From IMG/VR virus record IMGVR_UViG_2579778974_000005: DNA of 13,459 nucleotides, one strand, 5' to 3'. This document shows, piece after piece, positions 1-11,496 of the stretch; within the stretch, counting starts at the first letter, position 1, and the number at the start of each line of letters is the position of its first letter. Under the pieces are notes generated by a model, which had not been told where the DNA came from, ran no database searches, and saw only the letters and a list, made by a program, of their open reading frames with translations. Made by a program: the position numbers and the translations under genes. This DNA is from a virus (taxonomy: Duplodnaviria; Heunggongvirae; Uroviricota; Caudoviricetes).

Positions 1-279
1 ATGGCTGCGCTTGGGCAGTCAATCGGTGGTATATTCCCTTCTGATGAAATAGTCAAAGGCTCTATTAGCGGATATGTCTTCGAGCAATTTGAAATCGCCT
101 GTTACACCTCACTCTTAGCAGCAGCAAAAAATGCCGGTGATACAGCTTCAATTCCAACCATCGAAGCGATTTTAAATGAGGAAAAGCAAATGGCCGACTG
201 GCTGATTCAGCATATTCCGCAAACAACTGAGAAATTTTTAATTCGCTCTGAAACTGATGGCGTAGAAGCGAAGAAATAA
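1..279 (+). CDS. yciE: 3' end (92 codons) of a ferritin-like DUF892 family protein (YciE/YciF-type); the 5' end lies outside the window
   Basis: Open frame running from the window edge to TAA at 277..279. The translation (..FEQFEIACYTSLLAAAKNAGD..ILNEEKQMADWL..) has the C-terminal pattern of DUF892 proteins such as E. coli YciF. Assignment to yciE rather than a paralogue is recollection, not verified. Followed by a hairpin plus T-run. Confidence 0.6.
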   Translation: MAALGQSIGGIFPSDEIVKGSISGYVFEQFEIACYTSLLAAAKNAGDTASIPTIEAILNEEKQMADWLIQHIPQTTEKFLIRSETDGVEAKK

Positions 280-303
280 TACCCTTTATACCATGTCCTT
301 ATT

Positions 304-330
304 GACCCCGTATATTACGGGGTCGTTTTT
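304..330 (+). terminator. Rho-independent terminator of the yciE-like gene
   Basis: Inverted repeat GACCCCG (304..310) / CGGGGTC (318..324) with a 7-nt loop, followed directly by GTTTTT (325..330), 25 nt after the stop codon. Confidence 0.6.
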
Positions 331-767
331 GTGCGGAATTAAAAACGATATCCTGCTGAGAACATAAACACCCACGGATCGAGGCGTACGCTATCGTGTT
401 GCTGTGCACCGCCCAGTTTATAATTGGCGGTGGTATCGATATCCATGTACCACACTGGTAGGTTTCAAAAAACACAATAACCAATTGTATTTGAAGCAAA
501 AAACAAGACTTTGAGATGTTTTGTTGTACCTTTTTTTTATGTTTTTAACTGTCTGATTTTATTGAAATCTTTTTTAGTTTTGCAGAAGGAATTTTTTACT
601 TGATTGTAACTTTTTCGTTTTTTTGGGGCTAATTGACGCGCAATGCTGGGCGGGGAGCGCACAGCCAAAAAAACCGAAATTGACCGCTAATTACTGCCAA
701 TCATCATCGCTCTGATTGAGCGTAAATCATTCAGGTTATTCAGTTCTTCCTTCTGCTCTCGCTGACG

Positions 768-1378: not shown

Positions 1379-2047
1379 ATGGTGAAATTAATGAAAAAAA
1401 ACACAGATGATGGGGCTAAAATTTACACACCACTTACCCTAAAGCTTTATGACTGGTGGGTTTTGGGAGTATCAAATTGGCTTGCATGGGGATGTCCTAC
1501 AAAGGAACACCTTCTTCCACACTTTCTGGAACATTTAGGTAACAACCATCTGGATATTGGTGTTGGAACTGGGTTTTACCTTACTCACGTACCTGAGAGT
1601 AGTCTGATATCTTTAATGGATTTGAACGAAGCTAGCCTGAACGCGGCATCTACAAGGGCTGGGGAATCAAAAATTAAACATAAAATTAGCCATGATGTTT
1701 TTGAACCTTATCCCGCGGCGTTACATGGTCAATTTGATTCCATTTCCATGTTTTACCTTCTTCACTGCCTGCCTGGAAATATAACTACAAAAAGCTGTGT
1801 AATACGCAATGCGGCGCAGGCCTTAACTGACGATGGAACTCTATACGGAGCCACAATTCTTGGCGATGGAGTTGTGCACAATAGCTTCGGTCAAAAACTG
1901 ATGCGCATTTACAATCAGAAAGGCATCTTTTCAAACACAAAAGATTCCGAAGAAGGCTTAACACATATACTCTCAGAGCATTTCGAGAATGTTAAAACCA
2001 AGGTTCAAGGTACTGTAGTAATGTTTTCCGCTTCAGGGAAAAAATAG
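1379..2047 (+). CDS. Class I SAM-dependent methyltransferase (222 aa; possible alternative start at ATG 1391)
   Basis: Complete ORF with the glycine-rich SAM-binding motif I DIGVGTGFY, preceded by a YDWW segment as in small Rossmann-fold methyltransferases. Visibly more AT-rich than the flanking tail genes. Opposite orientation to the flanking tfa fragments; I recall the same arrangement in E. coli K-12 prophage DLP12 (tfaD-ybcY-tfaX) but did not verify homology. Confidence 0.8.
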   Translation: MVKLMKKNTDDGAKIYTPLTLKLYDWWVLGVSNWLAWGCPTKEHLLPHFLEHLGNNHLDIGVGTGFYLTHVPESSLISLMDLNEASLNAASTRAGESKIKHKISHDVFEPYPAALHGQFDSISMFYLLHCLPGNITTKSCVIRNAAQALTDDGTLYGATILGDGVVHNSFGQKLMRIYNQKGIFSNTKDSEEGLTHILSEHFENVKTKVQGTVVMFSASGKK

Positions 2048-2240: not shown

Positions 2241-2534
2241 TCACCCACGATTAACCAACAGCCAGACCAGCAGACACGCCACCACCGGCACAGCAAAATC
2301 CATCAGGCTTGCCACATCCCATGCACGTGTATCAAAACCGCCCCACCACGGCATATTCATTCGCTTGCCATGCCCGAACATTTCGATCCAGCGATATTCT
2401 GCCTGGGTGTGTTCACGCGCAATGAAGAACGTACAACCGGCTATCGCCCCGTAAGCCCAGTTCCCGGTAAAAAGACCAATCAGTAGCTGCGCAGCCACAG
2501 CACAAAGCGCATGAAGGAAAGGTGTTATATCCAT
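2241..2534 (-). CDS. Small membrane protein (97 aa, two predicted hydrophobic helices), function unknown
   Basis: ATG at 2532..2534 with AGGAGG 5 nt upstream, 10 nt after the stop of the preceding gene. Hydrophobic stretches FLHALCAVAAQLLIGLF..AIAGCTFFIA and LMDFAVPVVACLLVWLLV. Confidence 0.6.
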   Translation of the reverse strand: MDITPFLHALCAVAAQLLIGLFTGNWAYGAIAGCTFFIAREHTQAEYRWIEMFGHGKRMNMPWWGGFDTRAWDVASLMDFAVPVVACLLVWLLVNRG

Positions 2535-2544
2535 TACTCCTCCT

Positions 2545-3249
2545 TTATCCGATATCGCTTCGGGAAACGGATAACAACTTTAATTCTGACTCAAGTTCAT
2601 CAACTCTTTCAGTCAGCTTCTGGATATGGTGAATCAGTGGAACAACCAGACGTTCGTACATTACACCTTCGGCAACAAGGCCATTGCTGGAAATAGCTTC
2701 AGGAGCATCATCTTCGTTAGCTGGTCGCCAGTGTACAAACTGAGGGGCAATTTCTCCTACTTCCTCGGCAATCAATCCGTAGAATCCCCAGTCACGCCTG
2801 TCATTTTCGCATTGCGACCTGTACCACACAGGGCGCATCCTGAAAATGAGATCGGCGTGCTCTGAATCTATCGTCTCTACTGAATGTTTATAGCGAATAG
2901 ACGATGTTGACCGCAGTACAGACGAAATTGCAGGGTCAGGATTAAGATAAAGGTTTGCCGCCGCTGTAGTCGTGCCCAATCCCCACATATAAAACGCTTC
3001 ACGGCCAGTCAACGGGTAAAAATCTCCACCATAACGACCGCTTTCCAGATCGTTCACTTCCAGTTTGTTTTTCAGCTTATTATCAACTTCAGTTTTTGTG
3101 TATCTGGTGCTGATATCCTGCTTTGCACTGGTCATATCAGTCTGAAGCGTTGATACTTTTCCGTTAATTGAGGAAATATCTTCCTTAGTTTTACTGACAT
3201 CTCCCTTTAGCGTGGTGATATCTCCTGGAATTACTGTCGATGTAGCCAT
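2545..3249 (-). CDS. Short fibre-like protein: N-terminal coiled-coil plus C-terminal intramolecular chaperone (peptidase S74-type) domain (234 aa)
   Basis: ATG at 3247..3249 with GAGGGAG upstream. C-terminal region SSIRYKHSVETID..LIFRMRPVWY..WGFYGLIAEEVGEIAPQFV..GLVAEGVMYERLVVPLIHHIQKLTERVDELESELK fits the pattern of the tail fibre / endosialidase intramolecular chaperone domain as I recall it. Confidence 0.65.
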   Translation of the reverse strand: MATSTVIPGDITTLKGDVSKTKEDISSINGKVSTLQTDMTSAKQDISTRYTKTEVDNKLKNKLEVNDLESGRYGGDFYPLTGREAFYMWGLGTTTAAANLYLNPDPAISSVLRSTSSIRYKHSVETIDSEHADLIFRMRPVWYRSQCENDRRDWGFYGLIAEEVGEIAPQFVHWRPANEDDAPEAISSNGLVAEGVMYERLVVPLIHHIQKLTERVDELESELKLLSVSRSDIG

Positions 3250-3258
3250 TTGTCTCCC

Positions 3259-3540
3259 TCACATCCAGCCACGAAGTTGATGCTCAACAACAACCGCGTA
3301 TTTATCGAATATTGACGATTTTTTTACATCATTAATGATGCGCACGTTTACAAAATATCCGTCTTCCTTAACACATACCGGTTCGCCATCTTCAGTCAGT
3401 TCTCCGGTTTCTTTGTACACGTTACCTATCACGTCAATAAGAATATCATCCTGCATCGACTCGTCATCATAATAGCCAATACTCTCCATAAAGGCCGAAA
3501 AGTCGGCCCTGTCTGCAAATTTGAGTGTTAAATCTTTCAT
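3259..3540 (-). CDS. Small acidic hypothetical protein (93 aa); possible fibre chaperone or accessory factor
   Basis: ATG at 3538..3540 overlaps the stf stop (ATGA overlap), with a GGGGAGAG SD inside the stf 3' end. No recognisable family. Confidence 0.55.
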   Translation of the reverse strand: MKDLTLKFADRADFSAFMESIGYYDDESMQDDILIDVIGNVYKETGELTEDGEPVCVKEDGYFVNVRIINDVKKSSIFDKYAVVVEHQLRGWM

Positions 3541-5882
3541 TTAATACTCTCCCCCATTTGCGCATCAGTTAATTCTTTATGCCAGATACGCAGATTACGG
3601 ATATGACCAAAAAGATGATACTCCCCATTAGTGCCCTGCCCTCCAATTCGCAATACTGCCCGTGGAACAATTGAAGTCCATGTTGTTTTTGCCGCAACAG
3701 ATAATTCACCATTACATACGGCCTGAACATCTCCATCAGCGCCACAACGGAAGCCTGAAATGATTTTCCTCTGGGTTGTTGCCACATATTTATTACACCC
3801 TCCCATAGAAATAAAAGGAGAACCGGCATCAGAGAAATTATTACCACGGAATCCATGCGTGAACAGACCATTTTCCTGATAATCTTTAACATTAAAGATT
3901 AATGGTGATTTGCTGGGAGGGATATCCCAGTTTTTATTAACTTCAACAAGAGCACTGAATGGTAATCGGTGAATATTGTTTCTTACAGGTATTGTCACCA
4001 TGTCGCTGGAGCGAGTGCCAGGAGCCCCTTCAGTAATGATAAATGACGTCCTGTACGACCCAATCTCCGCCTGAGGCATCGCAATATCTAACGTAGAGCC
4101 ATTGGGGATAATACTGATTCCAGGCATCGCCAGGATTTCAAATCTTGAGCTGATTATCATTTCCGCATCTGCAAAAAGAGTGGCGGTAAACAACCACCAT
4201 TCACCGACTCTTTCTGCCGTCACCGTCACATTATTTCCATGAACAACATTTCCCGTAACAGGATCCAGAACTGCATCTGAATGAAAAACAAACGCACCAT
4301 TATCAGACATTTTTCCGAACCTTGCACGACACCGGGAATTATCACTTTTCGTCAGACACGATATCGTCGTATAAGAACCTGCCGGGCAGGTGTAAGCATC
4401 ATTCGTGTTTACAGCAATTGCCTGATATCCTTGTGCTGTCGGATTTTCATTAATAACAGTTATCCTTCCATAGTTAAACCCCTTATCACTGTCGAACGAC
4501 TCAACAGACACACTACCCGTGTTATTCCATGCTTCTGGTGTATTTGAATTTCTGAAATAGTTTGTTCTCTGTCCTTCAATCAGCAAACCTTCTCGTTCAA
4601 ATCGCGGTTCGTCAACTTCAGCAACGGTTAATACACCTGATTTATTAATGTATGTTGCACCTGATGCGCGTTTGAAGCTAACAACCTTATCGGATGGCAT
4701 TTTAATAACATCATCACCTACGGTTATTTGCTTATAACCAGGCGAAAAGCCAGCAAGCATATCCAGTGAATCGTTAAACGGTATCCACACATCAGGCAGT
4801 GGCTGTAAGACATATTTATACGGCTCTGCTGCCTGGCTTGCATACTCTCTGGCTGCATCCTCACTTGCTTTAGCTGCTGTCTGGCTTGCTGCCGATGCTT
4901 GCGCCGAGTTCGCCGCTGCAGTCTCGCTTGTCTTTGCATTGGTTTCACTGGTTTTTGCAGCTTTTTGACTGTTTGCTGATGCAGTGGCAGAAGCAGCCGC
5001 CGCACTTGCAGAACCAGCTGCAGCACTCTCGCTTTCGGCTGCTGCATCCTGACTGCTTTTCGCCGCAGTTTCGCTGGCTTTGGCATTTGTTTCGCTGGTC
5101 TTCGCTGCCGTCTGGCTGGACTTTGCGTTAGTTTCGCTCGTCTTCGCTGCTTTCTGGCTGTTAGCCGCAGCAGTTGCTGATCCAGCTGCTGCAGTCGCAG
5201 AACCGGCTGCCGCGCTCTCGCTTTCGGCTGCTGCATTCTGGCTATTTTTCGCCGCAGTTTCACTGGCTTTGGCATTCGTTTCGCTGGTTTTCGCTGCCGT
5301 CTGGCTGGACTTTGCGTTGGTTTCGCTCGTCTTTGCGGCTGTCTCGCTGTTTTTCGCGTTGGTTTCTGATTTTTTGGCTGCTGTCGCGGAGTTTGCCGAT
5401 GCAGTCTGCGAGGACGCTGCCGCCTGTGCGCTGTTAGCTGCATTCGTTTCTGAGGTTTTCGCCGCGTTCTTCGATGATGCCGCTGCAGTTTCGGATTTCT
5501 TTGCCGCCGCTGCGCTCTGAGAGGCGGCTTCGGCGTTGCGTGCCGCTTCTTCCACCATTGCCTCAAAACGACGCAATGCCTCCGGCATGACATCATCTTC
5601 CGTCATGGCACCGAGAAAATCATTCAGCGTACCTGGTCTGGAACCTTCATAGACGGTAATGGTTCCGGCATGTGAAGGCGGAAAACCTTCAACCAGCAGG
5701 GTGACGCTGTACTGGCCATGCTCAACATCCATGCTGTAACGCCCGGCTTCATCCGGATTTTCAGAGGCCACCGTGTTCACCAGTACCGTGGTGCTGTTAC
5801 GCTTTGCCTTCAGTTGAATAGTGCAGTTCTGTATTGGTTTTCCCGCACCATCTTTCAGCACACCTGAAATCTGTACTGCCAT
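3537..5882 (-). CDS. stf: Side tail fibre protein (Stf-like; 781 aa from the ATG at 5880..5882)
   Basis: N-terminus MAVQISGVLKDGAGKPIQNCTIQLKA..GRYSMDVE..FPPSHAGTITVYE matches the lambda Stf N-terminal domain from memory. It is followed by a long Ala/Ser/Thr-rich repetitive shaft and a distinct C-terminal region ending in a LamG/concanavalin-like motif (..RIGGQGTNGEYHLFGHIRNLRIWHKELTDAQM). GGAG SD before the ATG; the track's upstream GTG start is less likely. Confidence 0.85.
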   Translation of the reverse strand: MAVQISGVLKDGAGKPIQNCTIQLKAKRNSTTVLVNTVASENPDEAGRYSMDVEHGQYSVTLLVEGFPPSHAGTITVYEGSRPGTLNDFLGAMTEDDVMPEALRRFEAMVEEAARNAEAASQSAAAAKKSETAAASSKNAAKTSETNAANSAQAAASSQTASANSATAAKKSETNAKNSETAAKTSETNAKSSQTAAKTSETNAKASETAAKNSQNAAAESESAAAGSATAAAGSATAAANSQKAAKTSETNAKSSQTAAKTSETNAKASETAAKSSQDAAAESESAAAGSASAAAASATASANSQKAAKTSETNAKTSETAAANSAQASAASQTAAKASEDAAREYASQAAEPYKYVLQPLPDVWIPFNDSLDMLAGFSPGYKQITVGDDVIKMPSDKVVSFKRASGATYINKSGVLTVAEVDEPRFEREGLLIEGQRTNYFRNSNTPEAWNNTGSVSVESFDSDKGFNYGRITVINENPTAQGYQAIAVNTNDAYTCPAGSYTTISCLTKSDNSRCRARFGKMSDNGAFVFHSDAVLDPVTGNVVHGNNVTVTAERVGEWWLFTATLFADAEMIISSRFEILAMPGISIIPNGSTLDIAMPQAEIGSYRTSFIITEGAPGTRSSDMVTIPVRNNIHRLPFSALVEVNKNWDIPPSKSPLIFNVKDYQENGLFTHGFRGNNFSDAGSPFISMGGCNKYVATTQRKIISGFRCGADGDVQAVCNGELSVAAKTTWTSIVPRAVLRIGGQGTNGEYHLFGHIRNLRIWHKELTDAQMGESIK
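4850..5430. repeat. Tandem coding repeats (~189-bp unit, about 2.5-3 copies) in the stf shaft
   Basis: Near-identical blocks starting near 5041 and 5230, with a related copy near 4860-5040. Protein repeat ..KAAKTSETNAKSSQTAAKTSETNAKASETAAK.S..AAAESESAAAGSA.. seen twice. Confidence 0.8.
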
Positions 5883-5893
5883 ATTCACTCCAC

Positions 5894-5921
5894 AAATAAA
5901 AAAGGCGCCATTTCTGGCGCC
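5894..5921 (-). terminator. Rho-independent terminator downstream of J, immediately upstream of the stf ribosome-binding site
   Basis: On the minus strand: GGCGCCA-GAAA-TGGCGCC stem-loop (plus 5904..5921) followed by TTTTTTATTT (plus 5894..5903), about 20 nt after the J stop. Confidence 0.6.
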
Positions 5922-5940
5922 CGTATCTGGGTTATAAAAT

Positions 5941-8900
5941 TCAGCTAATCATGATGCCTGCAGTGGCTTTCTTCATCACCACAACCAGCAAATCGCTGAT
6001 ACTTGCTGTGGGATACCAGCCATTTACCAGCCATGCCGATACAGAAAATTCCAGTGTCATTACACCACTGCCTGCAGGCATATCAATAACACCCGTATAT
6101 ATCAGCGTATTATCCAGAGCCGTTCGGTTATAAATTTCAGCACCGTTTTTTCGTACTATCAGACGGCATGAGGAGTAGATATCAGTATGATCTTGCTCAT
6201 GTTTAGCGCCACTGAATGCCACCGCCGGAATAACAATTTGCCGGTCAAACGGCTGATCGTCATAAACCCTGACGGTAATGGTCCCTGATGGCCACCGCTC
6301 CGGTGCACGGGAGTCCCGGGGGAAAGCTTTGCCCACTGTTTTAACGAGATCGCCTTCAATCTGGTTCGCGGACAGTTTTCCCAGAACCCGGCAGTTCTCG
6401 TTAATCGTGACGTTGTTGAGCGTCCCGGAGTTCGCATTCACGTTACCGCTAATATCGGCATTTTTCGCCGTCAGCCGCCCGTCCGGTGTCAGGGAAAATG
6501 CCGGAGGATTACCGCCGCTGGTAATGGTGGGAGCCGTCAGATATTTCAGGAACACTTCGTTCATGAATATCTGATCGCCCTGACCAACAAACATCGGCTT
6601 TGTGTTGCCATTCGCAGGATTAATCATCGCAATCCTGTCCGCCGCCAGCAGCACCTGACTCTGCATACCGTCAGGGGTATTCTCAATACCGGCACCAATA
6701 CCCGCGATATAAAGGCGTCCGTCCTGCATCTGCTGCAGCTTCACAGCCCACATGCTGTTCAGGTTATTATTTGTATCAACCTGAACCTTCTGTATCTGCT
6801 GGATTGCCGCACTCTGGTCTTCCAGTTTCTTATTGACGGTCTGCGTGATTTCATTACTGACATCCGTGATGGACGTTCTGATTTCCGCCAGGTCAGGCGC
6901 AAGCTGACCGTTATCAATCTGCGTCCACAACTCCTGAGCCAGATGGGTTTTCCCTATCTCTCCTTTGAAAAAATTCAGATAGCCGGATGCATCATCACTC
7001 GGCTGGCCAACAGCCTCCACGAATGCCGATTTGCCAACGGTGTTCACACTGCGGATGTAAAAATAATAATCATGGCCCGGTTTGATATTGATACTGGCGG
7101 CTATCCAGTACAGCGCCGTGCCAAGATAGCGTGCTGTGGTTTCAACCTGCCTGATATCCGCAATCCGCTTTTCCGAGAACCAGAACTCAAACTGTACCGT
7201 CGGATCATAAACCGCAAGATGCGGCGTGGCGGTTATCTGAAAATACCCCGGTGTCAGCTCAATCTGCGACGGCGCTGCCGGTGCGGCAATCCGGAACGAT
7301 ACCGACGCCGGCTCGCCCTGCTGCCCCCACGCATTTACTGCCCGGACTGTCAGCCTGTAGTTCCCCAGAGCCAGTTGTGTGAAGCGGTAAGTGGTTTCCG
7401 TCGTCCGGGCCGTGCTGACCAGTCGCTCACGGCCGTCATCCGCTGCCACGGTCAGGCGAAGCAGGAAGCTCACGCCCTTCACCACCTTCGGCGTGTCCCA
7501 GCGGGCCAGCACCTGGTATTCCCCGCTGTCTGCGGTGACTTCTGCGGTCAGGTGCTGCACCGCTGGCGGCGTGACACCATTTACCGTGCCGCTCTGGTCG
7601 CCGTCAAAGTGCGCCCCGTTATCCACGATGGCCTCTTTTTCCGGTACATGCTGCACGGCGGTGATGGCATACGTGCCGTCGTCGTTCTCACGGATACTCA
7701 CGCAGCGGAACAGGCGCTGGCGCAACGTCGGCAGCTTCAGCCCCCATACGCTGTATTCAGCAACGCCGTCAGGAACACGGCTCACTTTCACCTTCACGCC
7801 GTCGGTGACGGACTGAACCTCCACGCTGACCGGACTCCCCTGCCCGTCAACCAGGCTTATCAGCGTGGTGCCGGAAGATGGCAGCGTGATTTCACGGTCG
7901 AGCGTCAGCGTCCGGGTCTGGCTGTTTACCGCCAGCACGCGCCCGCCGGTGCGGATACCGGCATAGTCATCATCGCAGATTTCAATGACATCGCCCGGTA
8001 CATGGCGAAGCCCTTCGGCACCCACGCTGAAGTCCACGGTCTGCGTTTCCAGCAGCTCCGTTTTAATCAGCCACAGCCCGGCGCGGTGTGCCTGCCCCCG
8101 GCTGGTACAGCCAAAGGCATCCATCTTCGTGACGTTACGACCGTAACGGAGAATGGCCTGCGTATCTTCAACAAGCTCTGTCGCCGTCTCCCAGCCGTTG
8201 TCCGGGTCAATCCAGTTCACCTCAACGGCATTATGGCGGTCCTTCAGGGCGCTGAAGCTGTAGCGGAACGGCGCGCCATCATCCGGCATCACCACATTAC
8301 TGCGGTTATAGGTCCACACCTTATCTGATGGTCGGTCCTGCACGAACGTCAGCGTCTGCCCGTTCCATACCGGCATACAGCGCATCGCCGAGCAGAAATC
8401 ACTGAGCACATCCCACGCCTTACGCTGCGTGGTCAGGTAGGCATTACAGGTGATGCGCGGCTCCGTGCCGCCAAAACCGTCCGGCACTGACTGGTCGCAG
8501 TACTGGCCGATGACATACAGCGCCCATTTATCCACATCCGCCGCACCAAGACGTTTCCCCATGCCGTAGCGCGGGTGGGTCAGCATATCCCACAGACACC
8601 AGGCCGGGTTGTTGCTGTATGCCGGCTTAAACGTTCCGTCCCAGATACCGCTGTATTGCCGCGTCTGCGGGTTATAGTTCGACGGCACCTGCAGAATGCG
8701 CCCGCGAAGATGATAATTACGGCTCACCTGCTGGCTGCCGAACTGCTCCGAGTCCACCTGCACGCCGACCAGTGCCGTGTTCGGGTAGCACTGTTTCACA
8801 TCGATGATTTCGGTGTATGACGACCAGAGCGTTTTGTTCTGCAGCTGGTCTGTGGTGCTGTCCGGCGTCATCCTGCGCATCCGGATGTTGAACGGGCGCG

Positions 8901-9420
8901 GCGGCAGGTTATCCACCACCACCGAGGCCAGATACTGCGAGGTGGTTTTGCCTTTAATGGTGATGTCTTTTTCCGTCACCCAGCCACCGTTACGCTGTAT
9001 CTGAACCAGCAGGCGGACTTCCGACGGATTCCGGTCCCCCTTTGAGGTGGTTTCCACCAGTGCCTGCACACCGAAGGTCAAGCGCAGACGGTCGATGTTT
9101 GCAGACGTGATGGTCCGGGTAATCGGCGTGTCGTACTTCACTTCCGTACCCAGCACCGTCTCGGAGCCGGAGGATTCAAATCCCTCCGGCGGTGTCTGCT
9201 CCTGCTCACCTGCCCGGAACACCACCGTGACGCCGGAGATATTGGTATTCCCCTCACTGTCCAGCACTGGCGTACTGTTCAGCAGCACGCTTTTTAATCC
9301 ATCCACCGGACCTTCAATCGGCCCTTCGCTGATGGCATCAATCACACTCAGCAACTGCGTGGACTTCAGGTTGTCCTTCGCTTCGCGCGGGGTATGCCCC
9401 TTACTGCTGCCTTTACCCAT
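5941..9420 (-). CDS. J: Tail tip host-specificity protein J (central tail fibre), 1159 aa, with a C-terminal region that differs from lambda J
   Basis: N-terminal ~790 aa ([24 protein letters not shown]..) match lambda J as recalled. The C-terminal ~350 aa differ from the lambda LamB-binding end as recalled. Confidence 0.95.
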
Positions 9421-9480: not shown

Positions 9481-10152
9481 TCAGCGACCAATCACCACAA
9501 CCTGACCACCGTCCCCTTCGTCTGCCGTGCTGATCTCCTGAGAAACCACCCGTGACCCCACGCGCATTTCACCGTACAGAACGGGCAGAACATTGCTCTG
9601 GGCAACCATGTTATCCAGGGAGGAGAAATAGGTGTTCTGTTTGCCGTTATCCGTTGTCTGTGTACGGGGAGTTCTGGCTTTCGGTGCCAGCATCTGCGCC
9701 ACACCACCGAGCACCATACTGGCACCGAGAGAAAACAGGATGCCGGTCATACCACCGGCCCCAATGGCTGCCCCCCATGCTGCAAGGGTGGCTCCGGCGG
9801 TAAAGAATGATCCGGCAATGGCGGCAGCCCCCAGGACAATCTGGAATACGCCCCCTGACTTGGCCCCGGCGACTCTGGGAACAATATGAATCACAGCGCC
9901 ATCAGGCAGAGTCTCATGTAACTGCGCCGTTAACCCGGACGTGCTGACGTCCCGCCCGGCAATCCGTACCTGATACCAGCCGTCGCTCAGTTTCTGACGA
10001 AACGCCGGGAGCTGTGTGGCCAGTGCCCGGATGGCTTCAGCCCCCGTTTTCACACGAAGGTCGATGCGGCGACCAAATCGTTGTAAATCCCCGTAAAGGC
10101 AGATGCGCGCCATGCCCGGTGACGCCAGAGGGAGTGTGTGCGTCGCTGCCAT
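9481..10152 (-). CDS. I: Tail tip assembly protein I (223 aa)
   Basis: Translation MAATHTLPLASPGMARICLYGDLQRFGRRIDLRV.. matches lambda gpI from memory. Overlaps the 3' end of K by ~100 nt, as in lambda. Confidence 0.95.
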   Translation of the reverse strand: MAATHTLPLASPGMARICLYGDLQRFGRRIDLRVKTGAEAIRALATQLPAFRQKLSDGWYQVRIAGRDVSTSGLTAQLHETLPDGAVIHIVPRVAGAKSGGVFQIVLGAAAIAGSFFTAGATLAAWGAAIGAGGMTGILFSLGASMVLGGVAQMLAPKARTPRTQTTDNGKQNTYFSSLDNMVAQSNVLPVLYGEMRVGSRVVSQEISTADEGDGGQVVVIGR

Positions 10153-10793
10153 TTGTCGGTGTACCTCTCTCGTTTGCTCAGTTGTTCAGGAATATGGTGC
10201 AGCAGCTCGCCGTCGCCGCAGTAAATTGCGGCGTGATTCGGCACCGATGAACCAAAACAGCACAGCAGCACATCGCCCGGCTGTGCCGCTGACAACGGCA
10301 CCTGATACAGCCCCGTCGCCTCCAGATTATCCAGATAGAGATTCTGGCAGTTACGCCACCAGTCATCCTCACGATGAAAGTCCGGCATCTCAATCCCCGC
10401 CAGATGATAAGCATCCCGGAACAGCGTGTAACAGTCCGTCACCCCGTGCTCAAAGCACCGCCCGGTAAGATGCGGCACACAGCGGAACTTGTGAATCGCC
10501 CCCCGGCAGACCAGCCACCACGGCAAATCACTCTGCACCTGCAGCCGCCGGTCGGTCTCACTCAGCCAGGGCAGACCACCGGGGTGGCTGTGGACCAGCG
10601 CCACAATCTCACCCTGCATTTCTGCCTGCAGCCAGTCTTCCGGCGACATACGGAAATAATCCTCCGGCTCACCGGAGATATTCACGCCGGGGAAATATCT
10701 TTCCCCCTCCGGCGCTCTCACCACGAAGCCGCACGACTCCGCTGGCGCACATCGCCGGGCGTGCGCCAGAATCGCTGATTCTGTCTCTGTCAT
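10050..10793 (-). CDS. K: Tail tip assembly protein K (JAB/MPN metalloprotease-like plus NlpC/P60 domains), 247 aa from the ATG at 10791..10793
   Basis: JAMM-like motif HSHPGG..SETD and an NlpC/P60-like Cys/His pair (..VTDCYTLF.., ..NHAAIY..). The ATG at 10791..10793 lies 4 nt after the L stop. The classical 199-aa lambda annotation would start at the ATG at 10647..10649; the track's longer ORF (to 10835) overlaps L. Confidence 0.9.
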   Translation of the reverse strand: MTETESAILAHARRCAPAESCGFVVRAPEGERYFPGVNISGEPEDYFRMSPEDWLQAEMQGEIVALVHSHPGGLPWLSETDRRLQVQSDLPWWLVCRGAIHKFRCVPHLTGRCFEHGVTDCYTLFRDAYHLAGIEMPDFHREDDWWRNCQNLYLDNLEATGLYQVPLSAAQPGDVLLCCFGSSVPNHAAIYCGDGELLHHIPEQLSKRERYTDKWQRRTHSLWRHRAWRASAFTGIYNDLVAASTFV

Positions 10794-10797
10794 GGGA

Positions 10798-11496
10798 TTA
10801 CTGCGAAAGTTTGTTAATGGAAAGGAAGCCGCCAAAATTGCCGACGTTATTGCGAAACTTACAGCCGCTCAGGCATTTGCTGCATTTATCCTTCGTGATA
10901 TCGGACGTCGGCTGGTCATATTCATCCGCGACTGCCGGACCGTGATAACCGCACTCATCACCGCGATAGGTCCAGGTGCAGGTGTTGGCCAGCATGATAC
11001 GCCCCGGAAAAACAGCGCCGTCCGTTTCCGTCGGCGTGGACAGTACAAAAGAGGCACTGACCGCGCTCAGTTCGCTGCACTGCTCGATGCGCCAGCGGCT
11101 GATCACCTCCTGCTCCGGATCGGCGTCACTGTTTCCGTTGACGAAGTTCACCGCATCCAGAAAACGGGCGTAAACCTTACGCCGGACCACCGTTCCGCCG
11201 ACCAGACTCTGCAGATCTTCCGCCATCCCGGTGACCATACCGTACAGGTTAGAAACCGTCAGCGTGGGGCGCGTACTGGTGCCTTTGCCATTCAGTTCAA
11301 AACCACTCCCCTGAATGGGATACGGCTGATACTGTCGCCCCTGCCAGGTGACCGGCTCACCTTTTTCGTTCTGCTCATTACAGAAAAAATAACGTTCTCC
11401 ACCGACCTCTGTCAGATCGATTTCCCAGAGCACCACGCTGGCCGACTGCTCCGCACGGGTGCATTCATTCAGTGTTTCCTGCCGGATATCCTGCAT
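10798..11496 (-). CDS. L: Minor tail protein L (232 aa)
   Basis: MQDIRQETLNECTRAEQSASVVLWEIDL.. matches lambda gpL from memory. ATGA start/stop overlap with M. Confidence 0.95.
   Translation of the reverse strand: MQDIRQETLNECTRAEQSASVVLWEIDLTEVGGERYFFCNEQNEKGEPVTWQGRQYQPYPIQGSGFELNGKGTSTRPTLTVSNLYGMVTGMAEDLQSLVGGTVVRRKVYARFLDAVNFVNGNSDADPEQEVISRWRIEQCSELSAVSASFVLSTPTETDGAVFPGRIMLANTCTWTYRGDECGYHGPAVADEYDQPTSDITKDKCSKCLSGCKFRNNVGNFGGFLSINKLSQ

Follow-up and report, generated by a model that had tools for sequence, protein, structure and literature searches.

What are three small genes doing behind a side tail fibre gene, at a place where phage lambda has only tfa? The question is raised by a 13,459-nt stretch of viral DNA (IMG/VR record IMGVR_UViG_2579778974_000005, Caudoviricetes; the whole stretch is hereafter called the window), in which stf is followed on the minus strand by genes for proteins of 93, 234 and 97 residues, here named orf93, orf234 and orf97. 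A sequence-only reading of the window had regarded this trio as accessory cargo co-expressed with the fibre, and had offered two hypotheses: (a) an auxiliary short fibre with its chaperone plus a membrane protein that blocks the receptor in the lysogen, or (b) a moron of unrelated function, such as defence. We think it somewhat probable, taking the assembly pathway and the role of orf97 proposed below as part of the claim, that the cassette supplies the distal half of a side-tail-fibre locus that is modular and built in two tiers, together with a membrane protein of mostly temperate phages.

The pathway that we propose is as follows. orf234 would trimerise through its coiled coil, and a small tip would be folded with the help of the C-terminal chaperone, which would afterwards release itself by a cut at Ser116, so that each chain keeps ~12.5 kDa. 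The processed orf234 would dock by its N-terminal peptide on the end of the Stf fibre and serve as a second receptor-binding tip, with orf93 assisting assembly, or serving as an adaptor, at the conserved terminus of the lectin domain of Stf, at the joint between Stf and orf234, or at both. orf97 is most likely located in the inner membrane and co-produced with the receptor-binding proteins; it would target some conserved component of the envelope and so protect the infected or lysogenic cell whatever the fibre's receptor, by way of superinfection exclusion or surface-glycan modification.

Side tail fibres set the first host-recognition step of lambdoid phages, and they have been engineered for targeted DNA delivery to gut E. 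coli. Judging from this locus, many natural E. coli prophages carry, instead of lambda's Stf and Tfa, a plug-and-play system of lectin-tipped fibre, small partner and exchangeable short fibre; natural splice points for swaps of specificity would be the conserved end of Stf (its last 40 residues), orf93 and the N-terminal 16 residues of the distal fibre. The families of orf93 and orf97, phrog_1361 and phrog_1443, are uncharacterised and present in thousands of genomes. The main interest lies with orf97, which is compact and extremely conserved, and whose position suggests protection of the infected or lysogenic cell. Literature searches on the RefSeq accessions of the four proteins, and on accessory genes of lambdoid side fibres, returned nothing specific.

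The fibre operon and its relatives

The three genes lie on the minus strand and are tightly coupled, just as the sequence-only reading had described them: the ATG of orf93 (3259–3540) overlaps the TGA of stf as ATGA (3537–3540), orf234 (2545–3249) starts 9 nt past the orf93 stop, and orf97 (2241–2534) starts 10 nt past that of orf234. The sequences upstream of the three starts are, in this order, GGGGGAGAGtattaaATG, GAGGGAGacaaATG and AGGAGGagtaATG, and a purine-rich ribosome-binding site stands 4–6 nt before each gene. The chromosomes of E. coli MS6198 and of several further strains match the window at 100% identity. Within it is the right end of a lambdoid prophage, which neighbours yciE and a shortened ompW. 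The gene order of the prophage on the minus strand is H, M, L, K, I, J (5941–9420), stf (3537–5888), orf93, orf234 and orf97. Among 5,426 complete E. coli genomes, 723 have at least 80% of the 1.3-kb stretch of the trio, and parts of it are found in 1,904; prophages with the full trio thus occur in 13% of the complete genomes, and those with parts of it in 35%. The products match PHROG families (orf93, phrog_1361, E=2e-46; orf234, phrog_3299, E=2e-140; orf97, phrog_1443, E=3e-58). These matches, together with the 723 genomes, establish the trio as real, common genes rather than chance open reading frames (ORFs).

Why lambda's tfa is missing at this place can be understood from Stf itself (3537–5888, minus strand, 783 aa). 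The N-terminus is the lambda-type anchor (PF08400, E=6e-67), the full length belongs to phrog_1419, and residues 436–627 match NF048003, GTA_spike_fiber. The C-terminal 400 residues are lectin-like, of the head-spike-fibre type of gene transfer agents (GTA), with a variable middle and conserved ends: in an alignment of 18 alleles, residues 361–441 and the last 40 residues are conserved and the stretch between them is highly variable. A search with the C-terminal half found no match. The anchor and the lectin-like domain are connected by an Ala/Ser-rich repeat shaft with tandem repeats at 4914–5385. Compared with lambda, the locus shares the PF08400 anchor, the position after J and a surviving downstream remnant of tfa; unlike in lambda, the C-terminal half of Stf is unrelated and none of the proteins of the trio is a Caudo_TAP protein (no hit to PF02413 at E≤0.1 in orf93, orf234 or orf97), so that the trio does not match the lambda-type fibre assembly set. 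The remnant, already named by the sequence-only reading, is real; RefSeq annotates 2102–2221 on the minus strand, downstream of the cassette, as an incomplete tail fibre assembly protein, and this C-terminal piece of a pseudogene marks the replacement of the lambda-type stf end and tfa. Thus, the displacement of tfa is explained by the tip of this Stf, which is lectin-like and unlike the Tfa-requiring one of lambda, and not by an addition of cargo.

Owing to the tandem repeats in the shaft, of 21, 42 and 189 nt, the remaining frames of both strands contain long ORFs that are spurious, such as those of 290 aa at 4724–5596 and 146 aa at 5080–5520.

The same arrangement exists in other phages. 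A phrog_1419 fibre, followed with ATGA overlap by a phrog_1361 protein and then by a fibre with an S74 chaperone, all on one strand, was found in the window and in five virulent phages: PeterMerian (Drexlerviridae), FGS017 and IrisVonRoten (Bas32; gp22-gp23-gp24), both T5-like, and JenP2 and ESCO3 of the Nonagvirus group, the small protein of ESCO3 being 92.5% identical to orf93. Indeed, the architecture is a widely shared fibre type already recognised in T5-like phages and Drexlerviridae, present here in a lambdoid form with one extra gene. The idea of accessory cargo does not survive this comparison: orf93 and the orf234-type fibre are integral to a lateral-fibre module that keeps its order and its ATGA in virulent phages of four other groups.

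In IrisVonRoten, gp22 has been modelled as the proximal fibre, from which a galectin-like domain protrudes, and gp24 as an attached distal fibre with a chaperone (PMC11990801). The attachment of gp24 to gp22 is a prediction only, and the same paper does not discuss the small protein gp23 (PMC11990801). The two systems have in common a phrog_1419 proximal fibre with an Stf-type N-terminus and a lectin- or galectin-like C-terminal domain, a small phrog_1361 protein (92 aa in IrisVonRoten) with a stop/start overlap with the fibre gene, and a distal fibre that begins with M-x-T-x-T-V-I-P-x-D-I and ends in an S74 chaperone. They differ in that the module of the window is on a lambdoid temperate phage and is followed by a fourth gene, orf97, and in the distal fibre, which has 574 aa and a T-shaped dual binding domain in IrisVonRoten, as opposed to 234 aa and a tip of ~50 aa in orf234. 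Another parallel is the branched, L-shaped LtfA/LtfB fibre of DT57C, whose second fibre is thought to dock via a short conserved N-terminal segment (PMC4728585, PMC10713586). It too is a two-protein lateral fibre with autocleavable S74 chaperones and a host range altered by module swapping (PMC4728585, PMC10713586). However, the docking module there is the 45-residue phiEco32 gp15-like N-terminus of LtfB, no phrog_1361 protein stands between LtfA and LtfB, and the proximal LtfA itself bears a chaperone.

Could the trio nevertheless be a moron, or anti-phage defence cargo, with no relation to the fibre? The location would suit it, since morons are known to accumulate behind tail fibre genes and a methyltransferase moron lies immediately downstream of the trio. 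PADLOC, however, found no match for any of the three proteins, which speaks against hypothesis (b); genes of the orf93 and orf234 types are conserved with the fibre gene in virulent phages; and orf234 is a tail fibre protein by its Pfam, PHROG and PDB matches. We therefore regard this explanation as very improbable for the trio, and for orf93 and orf234 it is already contradicted.

How the parts of the locus vary was surveyed in 80 E. coli viral contigs, retrieved through orf97. The trio does travel together, recurring in other genomes and with exactly the same architecture in 39 of the 80 contigs. At 80% identity, the C-terminal 400 residues of Stf form 13 clusters and the small protein forms four. 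The middle gene is of the 234/227-aa type in 39 contigs and of two related types of 346/347 aa in 30; it is truncated in 3 and missing from the remaining 8, which is the arrangement of phage 21. Stf tip and middle-gene alleles reassort freely, a single orf93 allele is seen beside 11 or more Stf tip alleles and beside each of the three middle-gene types, and orf97 is 95–100% identical whatever the fibre alleles.

The short fibre orf234 and the small protein orf93

The fibre part of hypothesis (a) held up well: orf234 is an auxiliary short fibre with its own C-terminal chaperone. Reading from the N-terminus, it comprises a probable docking peptide, a coiled coil, a tip of ~50 aa and the intramolecular chaperone. 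The first 60 residues resemble trimeric coiled coils, with weak matches to the P22 gp26 needle and Lpp, and residues 116–172 match Peptidase_S74 (PF13884) with 27.1 bits, above the Pfam gathering cut-off of 22; both the coiled coil and the chaperone had been recognised by the sequence-only reading. In the PDB, orf234 matches the C-terminus of DT57C LtfA (8hqz, E=1.6e-7). Among PHROGs it aligns to the C-terminal end of phrog_3299 and also to other tail-fibre families. Stand-alone homologues of 200–230 aa exist in ~45 coliphages, mostly Drexlerviridae, and are annotated as tail fibre or, by the BASEL annotators, as 'putative lateral tail fiber chaperone'.

To what extent these distal fibres share their ends is evident from an alignment of six of them, from lambdoid, Drexlerviridae, Nonagvirus and T5-like phages, which are 227–581 aa long and 26–60% identical. 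Only two features are invariant. The first is the 16-residue N-terminus, in orf234 encoded by codons 1–16 (3202–3249, minus strand), MATSTVIPGDITTLKG, in which M1, T3, T5, I7, P8, D10, I11, L14 and K15 are the same in all six; orf234 fits the pattern M-[AV]-T-x-T-[VI]-I-P-x-D-I-x-x-L-K, as do the 346/347-aa alleles. This peptide, common to the distal fibres of the module, is probably a docking element. The second is the chaperone domain (residues 116–234 of orf234; 2548–2904, minus strand) with Ser116 and Lys121, five residues apart at the start of the domain.

In the K1F endosialidase and in T5 pb1, such a Ser/Lys pair cuts the chaperone domain off after it has templated the folding of the trimer. 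By analogy, the chaperone domain of orf234 would be released once folding is complete, and ~115 aa would remain as the mature chain. The resemblance extends to the S74 Pfam domain, the Ser...Lys spacing of five and a C-terminal helical segment in orf234; the difference is that K1F endosialidase and T5 pb1 are a large beta-helical spike or a long fibre, as opposed to the very small coiled-coil fibre of orf234, for which the cleavage is predicted.

Given its size, orf234 might also be a relic without function, the C-terminal part of a formerly longer fibre gene that recombination has cut down. It aligns only to the last ~240 positions of the 1,385-position phrog_3299 profile, and the locus, with its tfa remnants, is a hot spot of recombination. 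However, orf234 possesses its own Shine–Dalgarno (SD) sequence and ATG, and in four phage groups, some of whose members have been isolated and are viable, stand-alone genes truly begin with its N-terminal peptide. Moreover, intact copies of the orf234 type occur in 39 of the 80 contigs, and middle genes that are truly truncated (3 of 80) are clearly recognisable as such. A fragment is thus highly unlikely, and we retain orf234 as a complete short fibre.

orf93 (phrog_1361; 3259–3540, minus strand) is translationally coupled to stf by the ATGA. It is an acidic protein, as the sequence-only reading had noted (isoelectric point 4.3), and AlphaFold2 models it confidently as a small alpha/beta domain with a predicted local distance difference test (pLDDT) score of 84, for which no informative neighbour was found in the PDB or among viral models. 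Homologues 35–92% identical occur in 179 phage records, and among the records listed the match nearly always falls at the 3' end of a gene annotated as tail fibre, or overlaps that end; in the lambdoid, Drexlerviridae, Nonagvirus, T5-like and rV5-like loci inspected, the family always stands directly after the fibre. Judging from this gene order and from the family assignments, orf93 is a conserved partner of phrog_1419-type fibres, and it probably functions as an assembly factor or adaptor. Its alleles narrow down where it may act. Since one orf93 allele goes with at least 11 Stf tips and all middle-gene types, orf93 is not tuned to the variable stretch of Stf, which presumably binds the receptor, and any chaperoning or capping must act on the conserved core or end. 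A contribution to the joint with the second fibre is possible.

An alternative for orf93 is that it is a dedicated folding chaperone for the lectin-like C-terminus of Stf, an analogue of Tfa that stays outside the virion, with orf234 attaching elsewhere or forming an independent fibre. In its favour, orf93 is present wherever there is a phrog_1419-type fibre, including phage 21-type loci that have no second fibre, and its start overlaps the stf stop codon. Furthermore, the one strongly divergent orf93 allele (89 aa) is confined to the single Stf allele with a divergent C-terminal end, although this pairing may be mere linkage of adjacent DNA. Against it, the Stf tip alleles served by one orf93 allele, at least 11 of them, are only 37–44% identical, so that any chaperoning must be directed at the conserved core. 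In addition, the IrisVonRoten homologue is annotated as a tail fibre protein, and the locus shows no apparent place for orf234 to attach other than the Stf fibre. We consider this alternative possible but rather unlikely, and keep to an assembly factor or adaptor at the conserved Stf end and/or the joint.

The orf93 allele also co-varies with the N-terminus of the distal fibre (MATS versus MVTK) and with the Stf end. This was rejected as evidence of contact, since adjacent DNA is linked.

A possible distant relative of orf93 was noted in Pantoea and Comamonas prophages, where a protein of 95–188 aa is encoded between an Stf-type lectin fibre and an orf97 homologue (locus L108, 4484–4996; L113 and L119, 4432–4995; L103, 4714–4998). 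Its first ~70 residues carry the orf93 motifs L-x-F, D-x-I-G, T-G and G-[YWF]-H-[VI]-N. The profile-profile comparison with orf93 gave a probability of 64% (E=6e-5), and a plain orf93 hidden Markov model gave no match; the similarity is suggestive of homology. If true, the triad of fibre, orf93 and orf97 predates the enterobacterial phages.

The membrane protein orf97

orf97 (phrog_1443; 2241–2534, minus strand) is the last gene of the fibre operon. The sequence-only reading had called its product a two-helix membrane protein; it is indeed hydrophobic, but AlphaFold2 (pLDDT 92) gives it three helices, at residues 4–23, 26–52 and 74–96. The loop formed by residues 40–72 (2319–2417, minus strand), REHTQAEYRWIEMFGHGKRMNMPWWGGFDTRAW, with the signature REHTQAEYRW...MPWWGGFD, is near-invariant. 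Its conserved columns are invariant in 29 sequences from Escherichia, Salmonella, Aeromonas, Comamonas and Leclercia, and in 41 more distant members R40, E41 and W72 are still invariant, with H8, Q44, E46 and D79 conserved in at least 90%. Searches for the family gave 453 homologous clusters and, at 50% identity, 430 representatives, of which all those listed are stand-alone proteins of 58–146 aa. No Pfam or NCBIfam family and no PDB relative was found for orf97, and all 41 distant members belong only to the unnamed phrog_1443. It could also be considered as a lipoprotein; this was rejected, as Cys11 is not conserved and there is no lipobox.

What unites the family is its genomic context. orf97 directly follows Stf-type fibres in E. 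coli; it follows a P22-like tailspike and precedes the integrase in JEP4 and in a Leclercia prophage; and it follows a P2-type fibre or the assembly protein of that fibre in an Aeromonas prophage and in the Halomonas phage phiHAP-1. In Chelativorans it stands after an Stf-type lectin fibre, and in Comamonas and Pantoea after an Stf-type fibre plus possibly the orf93-like protein. Of the upstream neighbours tested at diverse loci, 6 of 10 are tail or fibre proteins by PHROG; this evidence leaves aside the spurious or non-phage upstream ORFs of high-GC loci (e.g. L100, L104, L112, L129, L135 and L139). orf97 is thus linked to receptor-binding genes in general, mostly in temperate phages of several proteobacterial classes.

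Virulent phages give the complementary view. orf97 is absent from all five virulent carriers of the module, even from ESCO3, and in the virulent phages ST1UNAM and PBM-2 a tailspike with an S74 chaperone is followed only by a truncated orf97 remnant. Missing or fragmentary in such phages, orf97 is therefore not needed for fibre assembly. Its constancy across fibre alleles argues, furthermore, against masking of the particular receptor used by its own phage. Receptor-specific blocking, as envisaged in hypothesis (a), would be disfavoured on this sequence comparison, given that orf97 does not co-vary with the 13 Stf tips or the middle-gene alleles. That orf97 is instead a receptor-independent protective or envelope-modifying protein is a serious possibility, though one to which we give less than even weight.

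ST1UNAM, a siphovirus, and PBM-2, an N4-like podovirus, have this tailspike, annotated as endosialidase, in common, with the orf97-like fragment at the same offset (locus L143, 3965–4120, and L144, 4001–4159, respectively). The fragment is a 51-codon ORF in ST1UNAM and is known from match coordinates in PBM-2. Both are the footprint of a transfer of the tailspike from a temperate P22-like phage.

Protective genes in such positions are familiar. Cor (phi80, N15 and T1), Llp (T5), gtrABC (P22) and oac (Sf6) are exclusion or conversion genes beside receptor-binding genes. In P22 and Sf6, genes for O-antigen conversion occupy the slot between tailspike and integrase (PMC3303846). The likeness of orf97 to all of these is in position only, as it comes last after the receptor-binding genes and in JEP4 is itself in the tailspike–integrase slot. 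Unlike them, it has no sequence or fold similarity, lacks a lipobox and is not allele-matched to the fibre; it is also far smaller than the Gtr and Oac enzymes. Indeed, searches of Pfam, NCBIfam and the named PHROGs gave no family membership of orf97 among Cor, Llp, Imm, SieA/B, Gtr or Oac.

Several observations count against the overall account. First, no sigma-70-like promoter was found within the cassette, which, together with the gene spacing, fits late co-expression better than expression in the prophage. Second, an intact 87-aa orf97 homologue lies beside a tailspike-like gene in the Aeromonas jumbo phage AVP1. Jumbo phages are usually virulent, and AVP1, probably virulent, may be an exception to the temperate pattern. 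Third, the topology of orf97 is ambiguous, the Lys/Arg count placing the loop in the cytoplasm and the annotation in phage 21 (N-in, C-in) in the periplasm. Fourth, orf93 and orf97 have no informative relative by sequence or fold in Pfam, NCBIfam, and PDB profile and structure searches. Fifth, the phage 21-type loci keep orf93 without a second fibre; orf93 thus belongs primarily with Stf and cannot be only a joint adaptor.

The first two of these points would equally suit a rival explanation, in which orf97 is a late lytic factor, either shutting down the export of receptor or O-antigen so that progeny avoid being caught on debris, or modulating lysis in a holin-like manner. A late role agrees with the 10-nt spacer and strong SD behind orf234, with the lack of a promoter-like site inside the cassette, and with the ATGA by which orf97 overlaps the gene before it (for a tailspike, an assembly protein or a fibre) in JEP4, phiHAP-1 and Aeromonas; the intact copy in AVP1 would likewise be accommodated. 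On the other hand, orf97 is missing or decayed in virulent coliphages with the same fibre modules. The holin variant finds no credible family match (one of 41 family members weakly matches Phage_holin_8, E=0.004), and orf97 sits in fibre or tailspike clusters rather than lysis cassettes, that of these phages being elsewhere. A late lytic role is therefore improbable in our judgement, and protection of the infected or lysogenic cell is the function that we carry forward.

A bolder form of the proposal, which we put forward tentatively, is that orf97 represents a new, widespread class of small inner-membrane proteins that are tied to receptor-binding genes and act on a universal envelope component, and that orf93 is a new adaptor or chaperone of the fibre joint. 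If so, the orf97 class would span phages, mostly temperate, of Gamma-, Beta- and Alphaproteobacteria, and would act through the REHTQAEYRW...MPWWGGFD loop and the conserved intramembrane His8 and Asp79. Possible targets are a glycan intermediate linked to lipid and a conserved protein of envelope biogenesis, and the effect would be exclusion or a surface change that is independent of the receptor of the phage.

Surroundings of the cassette

The tfa remnant beside orf97 has a counterpart. A second one lies at ~1053–1229, beyond the methyltransferase gene, with a Caudo_TAP (PF02413) match at 1053–1322 (E=6e-25), and the two remnants form direct repeats of 140 nt that are 91% identical (1033–1172 and 2082–2221). 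The gene flanked by these repeats (1379–2047, plus strand) encodes a class I S-adenosylmethionine (SAM)-dependent methyltransferase of phrog_2132, and looks like a moron inserted into a duplicated tfa end. The order orf97, methyltransferase, tfa fragment recurs in phage ev243 and in many viral contigs.

The junction between prophage and chromosome falls within window positions 1–700, where a yciE pseudogene (1–279) is followed by a 126-nt ompW fragment (339–464, minus strand); the prophage appears to have inserted into or beside ompW. A DUF4376 pseudogene lies near the junction, at 687–956.

At the other side of the fibre genes, an ORF for a K-like tail protein (10050–10835, 261 aa) overlaps the I gene region (9481–10152) by ~100 nt. 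Its TTG start was taken simply as the earliest start codon to follow a stop, and the real start may lie elsewhere. Between J and stf, most related contigs have a gene for a 199-aa Lom protein. The gap in the window (5889–5940) is without lom and instead contains a terminator-like hairpin (5903–5922, minus strand), as is also the case in phage 21, where a terminator is annotated at this position.

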